IMG/VR virus record: IMGVR_UViG_2563366955_000008
Coordinates: 1 to 6,033 of that record
Strand: one strand, 5' to 3'
Length of the DNA: 6,033 nt
From: a virus
Taxonomy: Duplodnaviria; Heunggongvirae; Uroviricota; Caudoviricetes
The notes beneath the pieces are model-generated. The model searched no databases and was not told where the DNA came from. It saw nothing but the letters and a program-made list of their open reading frames with translations. The position numbers were made by a program, and so were the translations under genes. Shown here in pieces: positions 76 to 1,190 of this stretch (its first letter is position 1; the number at the start of each line of letters is the position of its first letter).

Positions 76-111
76 AGCCCCTCTCCGGAGGGGCTGTTTA
101 TATTGATTTTG
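76..111 (+). terminator. Putative Rho-independent terminator; possibly tR' of the late operon or the terminator of a gene upstream of the window
   Basis: Perfect 8-bp GC-rich stem AGCCCCTC (76-83) / GAGGGGCT (88-95) with loop TCCG, followed by T-rich GTTTATATTGATTTTG. On the minus strand the hairpin is followed by GGAGAG, not a U-tract, so it is oriented for plus-strand transcripts. Confidence 0.4.
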
Positions 112-130
112 TCAGATGTGAGTAAACTCC

Positions 131-466
131 TTATGGACTTTGTTGTTTTAGCCCATAAGGACATATTTGCAGAGTGCAACGGTTATTAAAGCATTCATTC
201 AATACGTTATCTGTATTTGTAGGGCATTCCTGGCTGTTTTTGATTAAATTCCAGAATGTTTTATTGAATGGTACTACGTTGTAAATGGTTACAGGTAGCA
301 CTTTGTTATTGAGCATGATACCTGTGTGAGTCAGTGTAAATATACTTTCAGGAGGTAAGAAAGCATCCGATTGATACCAGATTATTAATTTTATTTTACT
401 CCATATGACTGAAAAAGATATTCCGCATGATGGCTGGATAACTGTATCAATCACAATCCACTTCAT
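131..466 (-). CDS. Hypothetical protein, 111 aa, no recognisable family; candidate moron gene in an AT-rich island, opposite to late transcription
   Basis: Intact ORF with start ATG at 466-464 preceded by SD AAGGAAA at about 5-nt spacing (minus-strand context aacAAGGAAActaaATG). AT-rich, rare-codon-rich sequence typical of horizontally acquired cargo. No signal peptide or TM segment seen. Confidence 0.5.
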
Positions 467-504
467 TTAGTTTCCTTGTTTATGCCTTGCTGGTGATGTT
501 CTGA

Positions 505-535
505 AAAGTATAAATGATATTTTTGATTGTAAACC
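505..535 (-). promoter_or_regulatory. Candidate sigma70 promoter for the minus-strand ORF 131..466
   Basis: Minus-strand -35 TTTACA (plus 528-533) and -10 TATACT (plus 507-512) with a 15-bp spacer, about 40 nt upstream of the ATG. A possible divergent plus-strand promoter (TTGCTG 487-492, TATAAA 509-514) overlaps it. Hexamer matching only. Confidence 0.25.
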
Positions 536-726
536 ATAGAGCAGAATTATTTTTCTGATGTTGTTTATTGTTTATTTAAATGCAGGGTGGTTTATATCTC
601 GTCTTGTAGTTTATCCATGCATATCTGCTTGATGATGAGGTTTTTATTTAAGGTATGGTTTTGTGTTTTTTCTGTATTACATGTCAGGTATTTTAAAGAA
701 TCATTTTTCAGATGGTGGAAAGAACC

Positions 727-915
727 ATGGCATTTAAACACTATGATGTTGTCAGGGCGGCGTCGCCGTCAGATCTTGCGGAAAAGCTGACACATAAACT
801 GAAAGAGGGCTGGCAGCCGTTTGGTAGTCCGGTGGCCATAACCCCTTATACCCTGATGCAGGCGATTGCAGCAGAAGGTGATGTGGTGGTCAGTGGTGCA
901 ACTGAGCCGGAGTGA
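727..915 (+). CDS. Small conserved phage hypothetical protein (62 aa from ATG 727; 67 aa if ATG 712 is used); possibly a DUF-type protein seen upstream of holins in enterobacterial prophages
   Basis: ORF 712..915. ATG 727 is preferred because purine-rich GGTGGAAAG lies just upstream, whereas ATG 712 has no SD. Protein MAFKHYDVVRAASPSDLAEKLTHKLKEGWQPFGSPVAITPYTLMQAIAAEGDVVVSGATEPE looks like a small globular protein; the family assignment is unverified recollection. Confidence 0.5.
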   Translation: MAFKHYDVVRAASPSDLAEKLTHKLKEGWQPFGSPVAITPYTLMQAIAAEGDVVVSGATEPE

Positions 916-1158
916 TACTACGTCATCGTACTGGCCCGGCATTCCAGGCCATAAAAGACGGTCTGGCAGTGGGACTAAATGCACTGACGCTGACGGATAT
1001 TACCAAAAATGCAACGTATGGCGTTGAGATAGAAAGTCTGGTGCTGGAGATAAATGCACCGGCATCATCATAAAAAGTGAGCCAGTCAAATGGAAGGTAT
1101 CGTTAAACTCACCGGTAGTGTCAGTGGGTCGTCTGAGACGCCTGCATGAGTTATCAGA

Positions 1159-1190
1159 GCCATCAGTACTTAACTGGTGGCTTTTTTATT
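1159..1190 (+). terminator. Rho-independent terminator 33 nt upstream of the holin start
   Basis: Stem GCCATCAG (1159-1166) / CTGGTGGC (1174-1181), 8 bp with one G-U pair, loop TACTTAA, followed immediately by TTTTTTATT (1182-1190). Confidence 0.55.

Follow-up and report, generated by a model that had tools for sequence, protein, structure and literature searches.

Two predicted intrinsic terminators ahead of a prophage holin: ends of an STnc100-family sRNA gene and a dead nanS-p gene rather than tR′

A terminator before the lysis genes is ordinary lambdoid architecture. The locus analysed here, a 6,033-nt stretch of a Caudoviricetes record (IMGVR_UViG_2563366955_000008, positions 1–6,033; "the window"), raises the question of which transcripts end at the hairpins upstream of its holin gene and whether either hairpin is tR′. 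A sequence-only reading had placed plus-strand terminators at 76–111 and 1159–1190, and had proposed that one or the other is tR′ and that holin and lysis-gene expression depends on antitermination.

Two strong terminator-like hairpins, and no others, were found in the whole window, both on the plus strand (Table 1). The stem of hairpin 1, at 75–96, comprises 9 bp (7 G-C); its loop is UCCG, its tail TTTATATTGATTTTGT extends to ~111, and it folds with −20.3 kcal/mol (z = −4.4). In hairpin 2 the stem, at 1156–1184, comprises 12 bp with the core GCCATCAGT/ACTGGTGGC; the loop has 5 nt, the tail TTTTTTATTG extends to ~1194, and the hairpin folds with −17.0 kcal/mol (z = −5.9). For each, none of 200 shuffles folded equally well. 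Both have the make-up of intrinsic terminators: a G+C-rich stem of about 5–14 bp, a loop of 3–8 nt and a U-rich tract directly 3′. A stricter scan of the 6 kb on both strands (at least nine perfect pairs, at least five G-C pairs and a T-rich tail) returned exactly hairpins 1 and 2 on the plus strand and zero sites on the minus strand, whereas 300 dinucleotide shuffles gave a mean of 0.06 sites per strand and never two or more. The minus strand has no T-tract at hairpin 1 or at hairpin 2, so both are unidirectional, and a bidirectional role for either was ruled out. The two plus-strand terminators are therefore borne out by their stems and T-tracts, the fold z-scores and the shuffle control, as is the placement of the second, whose T-tract ends ~33 nt ahead of the first holin ATG (ATG1, 1223). 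Judged from sequence, both hairpins are plus-strand transcription terminators of a lambda-like E. coli prophage and would be expected to terminate in vivo.

Table 1. Coordinates of the features between the left edge of the window and the end of the holin gene.
Feature	Position	Strand	Evidence or detail
STnc100-family sRNA gene (Rfam RF02076), 3′ half including terminator	1–111	+	cmscan
Terminator hairpin 1	75–96	+	CAGCCCCTC-TCCG-GAGGGGCTG, then T-rich tail 97–111
iraM-like anti-adapter gene	131–466	−	ORF; RefSeq "anti-adapter protein IraM", WP_000871291.1, in genome L085
nanS-p (SASA sialate O-acetylesterase) pseudogene, 5′ fragment with DUF1737	712–915	+	Pfam PF08410, E = 4.4e-17
Junction of 1,507-bp internal nanS-p deletion	931–946	+	16 bp match both flanks in the intact gene
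nanS-p relic, last ~47 codons to TAA at 1071–1073	931–1073	+	covers 1024–1055
Esterase 3′ untranslated region, Stx2 phage 86 type	1074–1155	+	96.9% identity across 931–1250
Terminator hairpin 2, conserved pre-holin terminator	1156–1194	+	AGAGCCATCAGT-ACTTA-ACTGGTGGCTTT with T6 tract
Small hairpin CUUCCG-GAUAA-CGGGAG, 3′ arm with the holin Shine-Dalgarno	1199–1215	+	fold
Class II (phage 21 S-type) holin, first lysis-cassette gene	1223–1438	+	Pfam PF04971, E = 7.2e-33; ORF

Hairpin 1 lies at the end of a recognizable sRNA gene. The STnc100 match at the start of the window scores 73.8 bits (gathering score 47; E = 6.6e-15) over model positions 96–206 and is truncated at its 5′ end; the left edge of the window removes the 5′ half and the promoter of the gene. 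Upstream context was supplied by L085, a genome that is 100% identical to the window over 1–5304 only and is possibly not the source strain. There the complete STnc100 scores 132.4 bits at L085 4916–5105, equivalent to window −84 to 105. The closing helix of the RNA (GCAUGGUG/CACCAUGC) has its 3′ strand, CACCATGC, at window positions 46–53 and its partner upstream of the window, in L085. In the alignment to the Rfam STnc100 consensus, the stem at 75–96 falls on the terminal stem with zero non-canonical pairs, and the structure of hairpin 1 belongs to the curated covariance model (RF02076). In all three STnc100 copies read by eye, a promoter-like TTGTCT-N17/18-(TG)TTAAAA precedes the start at GCATGGTG. 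PasD2, a reported structural homologue, has the opening motif GCATGGTGAATCC in common with STnc100, and both RNA-seq coverage and the size of the Northern band placed its 5′ end at this motif (bioRxiv 10.64898/2026.05.13.724894); TTGACT-N17-TTAAAA lies upstream of that 5′ end. RNA-seq read counts for EDL933 include STnc100 copies, from cultures for which phage induction is not mentioned, and one of the copies, STnc100_4, was confirmed by Northern blot (PMC5331693). These EDL933 copies are the ones for which expression as a discrete RNA of ~160–210 nt is known. Sequence and structure identify hairpin 1 as the intrinsic terminator that ends a gene for an STnc100-family sRNA. This gene has its own conserved, predicted promoter upstream, and by homology with the characterised copies it would be transcribed during lysogeny. 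Elsewhere in the window, Rfam matches to two microRNA families at 5362–5426 fell far under their gathering scores and were rejected; the sequence there is a palindrome.

The late leader appears instead to lie beside Q, outside the window. In L085, Q (PF06323) ends at 4351, 650 bp before window position 1. At 60–95 nt past Q, ~560 bp upstream of the window, a pR′-like promoter is followed by a conserved leader and a terminator of its own. This module spans L085 4335–4446, with its terminator (4413–4446; z = −5.4) directly after Q. Between Q alleles that are ~76% identical, the TTGCAA −35 hexamer is invariant while the −10 differs (TATGTT vs TATATT), ~40 nt of the leader are 100% conserved, and the terminator stem changes by compensation (CCACC/GGTGG vs CCCGC/GCGGG). 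A second plus-strand terminator past Q lies at L085 4749–4773, and a 65-aa ORF precedes STnc100; hairpins 1 and 2 are the third and fourth plus-strand terminators downstream of Q. L085 3600–6500 contains 11 terminator-like sites, compared with 2.5 ± 1.4 in shuffles. Phage records carry no annotated pR′ or tR′ features for this Q allele. We place the true pR′ and tR′ immediately past Q, ~560–650 bp upstream of the window, with pR′ assigned by position and conservation. Because a separate promoter-leader-terminator module stands next to Q, neither hairpin would be tR′: neither is the first terminator past pR′, adjoins Q or ends a short constitutive transcript from there.

The proposal that hairpin 1 is tR′, with the iraM island inserted beyond it in the way that Stx phages carry stx, thus becomes very unlikely. 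The RNA that ends at hairpin 1 is an STnc100 member whose start, ~595 nt past Q, sits behind both upstream plus-strand terminators and the 65-aa ORF, and another conserved module adjoins Q. Elsewhere, STnc100 occurs in Stx2 phage 86 downstream of stx2B, between it and nanS-p and far from any pR′, and in phage 640R1 two or three tandem copies follow a tRNA gene. The proposal does account for a strong plus-strand terminator downstream of Q with an AT-rich island behind it, and it has precedent in the short pR′ transcripts that stop at tR′, namely lambda 6S RNA and the 258-nt StxS of Stx phages (PMC7547250).

Between the two hairpins lie an inserted island and the remains of an esterase gene. The island, 28–35% GC, comprises iraM and its upstream region to ~711. 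The iraM gene reaches its stop at 131 and has no terminator of its own before meeting hairpin 1. Window 1–946 is 99.3% identical to prophage PP5 of E2348/69, in which nanS-p is intact; the copy in the window has a nonsense codon (TGG-to-TGA) at 913–915 in addition to the internal deletion, which is bounded by 16-bp repeats. By blastn, window 1–946 corresponds to 755–1700 of genome L004 and window 931–1076 to L004 3192–3337. The frame 3 translation of 931–1073 matches the esterase C-terminus, and when aligned with three intact esterase genes this segment is almost invariant until the stop codon. A sigma-70 consensus scan predicted no plus-strand sigma-70-like promoter in the window, and no Rfam sRNA family matched 1074–1194. 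We read 916–1158 as the dead nanS-p 3′ end and its 3′ UTR, a reading that leaves no place for a late promoter or a 6S-like leader. The late promoter suggested at 1024–1055 falls within conserved nanS-p 3′ coding sequence, and the 6S-like leader RNA suggested for 916–1158 gives way to the esterase relic; such a leader would be a non-coding transcript from an adjacent upstream late promoter, and none was predicted there.

These results bear equally on the reading in which hairpin 2 is tR′, served by the weak promoter at 1024–1055 and ending a 6S-like leader, which we regard as extremely improbable. Q is 1.9 kb from hairpin 2, the supposed promoter region is the in-frame end of nanS-p, and in 933W-type relatives the same hairpin stands behind a different esterase C-terminus, 10 nt past the stop, in the position of a gene-end terminator. 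What speaks for this reading is that hairpin 2 is a canonical terminator directly upstream of the first late gene, and that in the compact relatives L092 and L095, with 301–440 nt from Q to holin, the sole Q–S terminator, ~109 nt ahead of the holin, is probably tR′.

Hairpin 2 is conserved in front of related holins. It lies 37–46 nt upstream of ATG1 in all 40 distinct upstream sequences of close holins. Across these, 94.2% of cells are paired and both sides change in 5 of the 12 pairs; none of 500 shuffles reached the covariation score, and controls in which the stem was slid gave 22–66%. Strong terminators within 160 nt before holins occur in 27/40 close and 25/53 distant distinct leaders, compared with 7% of random segments. 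In L120 it is the STnc100 terminator that lies 53 nt ahead of the holin. We interpret hairpin 2 as the intrinsic terminator that closes the last inserted gene (here the dead nanS-p), held at a fixed distance before the phage-21-type holin. In about one-third of the close variants the U-tract is interrupted (e.g., CCCC-ACTTGTTGTTG) or the stem is mismatched. In those variants the stem is better kept than the quality of the terminator, so the stem could serve some other purpose.

One such role would be post-transcriptional, with termination secondary: the hairpin might set the 5′ end of the lysis mRNA as a stem-loop for protection or processing, or, as the 3′ end of an sRNA from the esterase 3′ UTR, it might bind Hfq. 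The covariation of the stem at a fixed 37–39 nt from ATG1, even where the U-tract is degraded, points this way, and Q–S prophage regions are rich in Hfq-dependent sRNAs (STnc100, PasA/C/D, AsxR and StxS). We nonetheless judge it unlikely that hairpin 2 is kept mainly for this purpose. The copy in the window bears a textbook U6 tract, and 1074–1194 has neither an sRNA family match nor a promoter signal upstream. PasA and PasC, which E2348/69 has between esterase and holin, lie on the other strand, and when PasA (85 nt) and PasC (78 nt) were aligned locally to both strands of the window the best scores were 17–24, from chance matches of 10–24 nt. On these two grounds the presence of a PasA/PasC homologue between esterase and holin was rejected, and no convincing terminator was found on the minus strand at 1055–1160.

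The leader between hairpin 2 and the holin has a structure of its own. At least three of the four Shine-Dalgarno bases are paired, through differing sequences, in 53 of 61 distinct homologous leaders. These leaders were folded sequence by sequence, as the RNAalifold consensus was empty, with MAFFT placing the short stems out of register. The holin has two possible starts, Met1 and Met4 (MYQMEK). Conceivably, though in our estimate doubtfully, phage-21-type holins bring the pre-holin hairpin with them as a dedicated, mobile "lysis-cassette gate". The stem at 37–39 nt from ATG1 would then form one conserved leader with the adjacent hairpin, in which the Shine-Dalgarno is sequestered, and, if this were true, stem covariation despite a decayed U-tract would be accounted for. 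Our preferred assignment remains that of a terminator closing nanS-p.

What does this arrangement imply for the lysis genes? The sigma-70 consensus scan predicted no plus-strand promoter between hairpin 2 and the holin, weak or non-canonical sites at 1195–1222 being beyond such a scan; lysis-gene transcription must therefore pass hairpin 2. This much of the proposed dependence of the holin and lysis genes on antitermination stands. In lambdoid phages, Q-modified polymerase is the established agent of read-through. We infer that it passes hairpin 2, and likewise infer the efficiency of termination in vivo and the Q dependence of read-through in this prophage. In Stx2a phages, nanS-p mRNA rises by 1–2.4 logs under mitomycin C induction (PMC10462455). 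If the phage 86 layout holds for the strains assayed, late transcription crosses the STnc100 terminator there.

We consider it quite probable that the window represents the "moron" region between Q and S, together with the lysis cassette, of a lambdoid E. coli prophage and that both hairpins have the roles proposed here. In the lysogen, both would likely stop ordinary RNA polymerase arriving from moron-region promoters (STnc100, possibly nanS-p), and holin and endolysin would thereby be silent. Upon induction, Q-modified polymerase from pR′ would ignore tR′, the terminator after the 65-aa ORF, hairpin 1 and hairpin 2, crossing four plus-strand terminators between pR′ and the holin. This suggests that stacked terminators, crossed by Q-modified polymerase alone, prevent accidental lysis-gene expression where the Q–S interval contains several moron and sRNA promoters. 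Such insulation, if true, would help account for the ability of prophages to carry constitutively expressed cargo upstream of lethal genes. For annotation, the late leader and tR′ move outside the window, hairpin 1 marks a known prophage sRNA family, the "non-coding" stretch becomes a decayed sialate-esterase gene, and a terminator directly ahead of the holin emerges as an almost constant element of phage-21-type lysis cassettes.

Several known systems share parts of this arrangement. The tR′/6S of lambda and tR′/StxS of Stx phages are also plus-strand intrinsic terminators in the late unit that Q-modified polymerase crosses, and there, as in the window, a short RNA ends at the terminator. They directly follow pR′ beside Q, whereas the hairpins of the window are neither so placed nor end a pR′ transcript. 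The STnc100 family, with PasD1 and PasD2 (= EcOnc13) of EPEC/EHEC prophages, is closer: the Rfam model fits in both sequence and secondary structure, terminal hairpin and U-tract included, and this multicopy family occupies the same site in lambdoid prophages, after Q (or stx) and before the nanS-p esterase. The window differs in holding only the 3′ half, followed by the opposite-strand iraM cassette where phage 86 has AsxR. PasA and PasC (EcOnc51/52) of E2348/69 prophages share the neighbourhood from esterase 3′ end to holin, with intrinsic terminators at their ends, but the esterase-holin spacer of the window is only 149 nt. In Stx phages and other lambdoid phages, the Q–S moron regions have tRNAs, stx, sRNAs and nanS-p, then S-R-Rz. 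Unlike the Stx phages, the window has no stx, its nanS-p is dead (nonsense codon and 1,507-bp deletion), and iraM is present; a tRNA scan of the window returned zero. The order is nevertheless the same (Q, pR′/tR′, small genes or sRNAs, nanS-p, holin), window 931–1250 is 97% identical to Stx2 phage 86, and in Stx2a phages nanS-p is induced along with the late genes (PMC10462455).

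Two terminator hairpins had been proposed upstream of the holin gene, and both were recovered. Hairpin 1 (CAGCCCCTC-TCCG-GAGGGGCTG at 75-96, then TTTATATTGATTTTGT) folds at -20.3 kcal/mol (z = -4.4), and hairpin 2 (AGAGCCATCAGT-ACTTA-ACTGGTGGCTTT at 1156-1184, then TTTTTTATTG) at -17.0 kcal/mol (z = -5.9). A stricter scan of the window, with minima of 9 perfect pairs and 5 G-C pairs plus a T-rich tail, returned the two hairpins and no other site; both are on the plus strand, and the minus strand had none. In 300 dinucleotide shuffles, sites averaged 0.06 per strand, and no shuffle had two.

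The window comes from a lambdoid E. coli prophage and spans the moron zone of its late region, the lysis cassette and the cos/terminase end. Many complete E. coli genomes match positions 1-1250 with 100% identity (727 genomes have a match spanning at least 80% of this query), and four induced phages, e.g. vB_EcoS-640R1, match them with 98.5%. The locus of E. coli strain 7/2 (L085) is identical to the window over 1-5304, window position 1 being L085 position 5001. The DUF1327/YdfR-family ORF between holin and endolysin encodes 297 aa, of which the family match covers only the first ~100 residues; at 1440, the only RefSeq annotation in an identical genome is an incomplete YdfR-family pseudogene of just 336 nt, and the relatives of this ORF in other phages are highly variable in length. 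Further downstream, a long, nearly perfect palindrome at 5362-5426 (GGTCCGACATGAAA...TTTCATGTCGGCC) has weak matches to microRNA families on both strands. Because it lies between GGGCGGCGACCT (5259-5270), which we take to be the lambda cohesive-end site, and the first base of the small terminase gene (5447), it may be part of the terminase-binding region.

Features of the window and of the region adjoining Q in L085
Feature	Coordinates	Strand	Remarks
Promoter-like TTGCAA-17-TATGTT	L085 4335-4363		directly after Q
Leader	after L085 TTGCAA-17-TATGTT		~70 nt
Strong terminator AAAAAACCACCGCCAGGTGGTTTTTTTT	L085 4413-4446		-16.7 kcal/mol, z = -5.4
STnc100 sRNA gene, 3' half	1-105		
iraM-like gene	131-466	-	in AT-rich island
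DUF1737 ORF	712-915		
Esterase 3' relic	916-1073		
nanS-p 3' UTR	1074-1155		97% identity to that of Stx2 phage 86
Phage-21-type class II holin	1223-1438		
DUF1327/YdfR-family ORF	1440-2333		
Lysozyme	2370-2903		
ORFs at Rz and Rz1 positions	3385-3858 and 3611-3796		
ORF	4115-4495		RefSeq annotation from 4169: TonB-family protein
Small terminase subunit	5447-5992		

Hairpin 1 belongs to an already curated sRNA family. Window 1-105 scored 73.8 bits with the STnc100 model (Rfam RF02076; gathering score 47) as a 5'-truncated match in which the model's terminal stem coincides with 75-96; a complete copy (132.4 bits) lies at 4916-5105 in L085. In each of the three STnc100 copies that we read, TTGTCT-N17/18-(TG)TTAAAA lies immediately ahead of a GCATGGTGAATCC motif. 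PasD2, reportedly a structural homolog of STnc100, whose 5' end was set at this motif from RNA-seq coverage and Northern band size (bioRxiv 10.64898/2026.05.13.724894), begins with it as the STnc100 copies do and is preceded by TTGACT-N17-TTAAAA. For EDL933, eleven STnc100 copies are listed with RNA-seq read counts, no mention of phage induction being noted for the cultures, and a Northern blot verified one of them (PMC5331693). From the promoter-like motif, the PasD2 5' end and the EDL933 expression, we interpret hairpin 1 as terminating an sRNA that is transcribed independently, with its promoter and 5' half beyond the window.

Downstream of Q, the late antiterminator gene, and a tRNA-Met gene, vB_EcoS-640R1 carries two full and one degenerate STnc100 copies in tandem (5448-5641, 5677-5852 and 5917-6105); L134, another of the comparison loci, also has two in tandem. 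Duplications of this cassette seem to arise easily. The iraM-like gene, whose stop codon is at 131, lacks a terminator, and hairpin 1 carries no U-tract on the minus strand; the iraM transcript would continue, antisense, through the terminator and body of STnc100 (75-135), and the two RNAs may interfere with each other by antisense pairing.

The sequence-only reading had offered either hairpin as tR', the leader terminator of the late promoter pR'. This assignment does not hold: hairpin 1 ends STnc100, and a separate promoter-leader-terminator module adjoins Q in L085, where 650 bp separate the end of Q (Pfam PF06323; 4351) from the window. We aligned this module with those of two phages; the TTGCAA hexamer was invariant, the -10 region differed (TATGTT versus TATATT), and the terminator stem carried a compensatory change (CCACC/GGTGG versus CCCGC/GCGGG). 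Within the presumed pR' leader, about 40 nt (AAATCTGATATTTTGCCGATTTTGTACGTGATGGC, L085 4364-4412) were 100% conserved while the Q 3' ends were only about 76% identical, which suggests a functional leader RNA or a Q-loading/pause region. Judged by position and conservation, pR' and tR' probably lie directly after Q, outside the window, in the pattern expected of a cognate Q/qut/tR' module. Since a further plus-strand terminator (L085 4749-4773) follows a 65-aa ORF, hairpins 1 and 2 are the third and fourth plus-strand terminators between Q and the holin gene S. The 2.9-kb stretch L085 3600-6500 holds 11 terminator-like sites versus 2.5 +/- 1.4 expected from shuffles.

A late promoter (TTGAGA...GATAAA, 1024-1055) and a 6S-like leader RNA (916-1158) had also been suggested; both ideas fell away because this stretch is a dead esterase gene with its 3' UTR. 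Prophage PP5 of EPEC E2348/69 shares 99.3% identity with window 1-946; downstream of its STnc100 and iraM, an SASA-family sialate O-acetylesterase gene (nanS-p) of 617 codons is intact. Counted from the annotated start MAFKHYD (window 727, five codons into the DUF1737 ORF), codon 63 is TGA in the window versus TGG in PP5 (913-915). The window picks up at 931-1076 with the last ~47 codons, and because each flank of the segment missing relative to the intact PP5 gene carries the 16 bp found at 931-946, the alignment indicates that 1,507 bp were deleted between short direct repeats and marks nanS-p as a pseudogene here. The relic, which covers 1024-1055, is nearly invariant against three intact genes through the TAA stop at 1071-1073, and 916-1158 matched no Rfam family. 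PasA/PasC, found in E2348/69 between esterase and holin on the opposite strand, were considered for the same stretch and rejected, as the window holds no similar sequence.

Hairpin 2 is an ordinary intrinsic terminator outside all curated families. We gathered 145 loci with holin relatives from viral and genome collections. Where the holins are at least 91% identical to that of the window, the hairpin ends 37-46 nt before the first of two possible holin starts (ATG1, 1223) in 40 of 40 distinct upstream sequences, which have roughly ten different stem sequences. In an alignment of 20 distinct variants, 94.2% of stem cells were paired (22-66% in slid-register controls), both sides had changed in 5 of 12 pairs, and the covariation score was reached by none of 500 shuffles. 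By position, the pre-holin hairpin is a predicted gene-end terminator that follows whichever gene is upstream. In the 933W type it begins 10 nt after a different esterase C-terminus; in a Phytobacter prophage (L120), with STnc100 at 2249-2456 and the holin at 2501, the STnc100 terminator is the pre-holin terminator; and in phage 689R5, with only tRNAs between leader module and S, a terminator still stands ~60 nt before the holin.

Under the strict definition, 27 of 40 distinct close leaders and 25 of 53 distinct distant ones have a strong terminator within 160 nt upstream of the holin (random segments, 7%); in the distant leaders these terminators cluster ~41-53 nt and ~105-123 nt from ATG1. 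Two compact relatives (L092 and L095) have a Q-to-holin distance of only 301-440 nt, and in them the terminator site near -109 probably represents tR'. Termination strength probably varies among the close hairpin-2 variants, because about a third have an interrupted U-tract or a stem mismatch; the stem may have another role. To our knowledge, conservation of hairpin 2 before phage-21-type holins has no earlier description. Nearly identical enterobacterial holin loci also occur in assemblies labelled Xanthomonas pisi, Nanosynbacter, Bacillota, Veillonella, Segatella and Geobacteraceae (L086, L093, L100, L114, L124 and L134), labels that probably reflect contamination or mis-binned contigs.

Just ahead of the dual-start motif MYQMEK (Met1 and Met4; 1223-1234), a small hairpin (CUUCCG-GAUAA-CGGGAG, 1199-1215) is predicted to sequester the holin Shine-Dalgarno. 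At least three of the four Shine-Dalgarno bases are paired in 53 of 61 distinct homologous leaders, via different sequences, and the hairpin presumably resembles the translational control structure of the lambda and phage 21 S genes.

No plus-strand sigma-70-like promoter was predicted anywhere in the window, 1195-1222 included; holin transcription would therefore come from upstream, past hairpin 2, and we infer, as originally proposed, that the lysis genes depend on read-through. It is established for lambdoid Q proteins, such as those of lambda, phage 82 and phage 21, that polymerase modified by Q at pR' resists terminators across the late operon; PMC7547250 summarises this behaviour. Stx2a phages lend indirect support, as their nanS-p mRNA rises by 1-2.4 logs on mitomycin C induction (PMC10462455). 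Stx2 phage 86 has an STnc100 copy between stx2B and nanS-p; if the assayed Stx2a strains share this layout, late transcription would pass the STnc100 terminator on induction. Both hairpins would halt unmodified polymerase from moron-region promoters and so prevent lysis-gene expression in the lysogen, and after induction Q-modified polymerase would pass all four terminators. Set beside Stx-like lambdoid phages, the overall architecture of the window is that of the familiar Q-to-S moron region.
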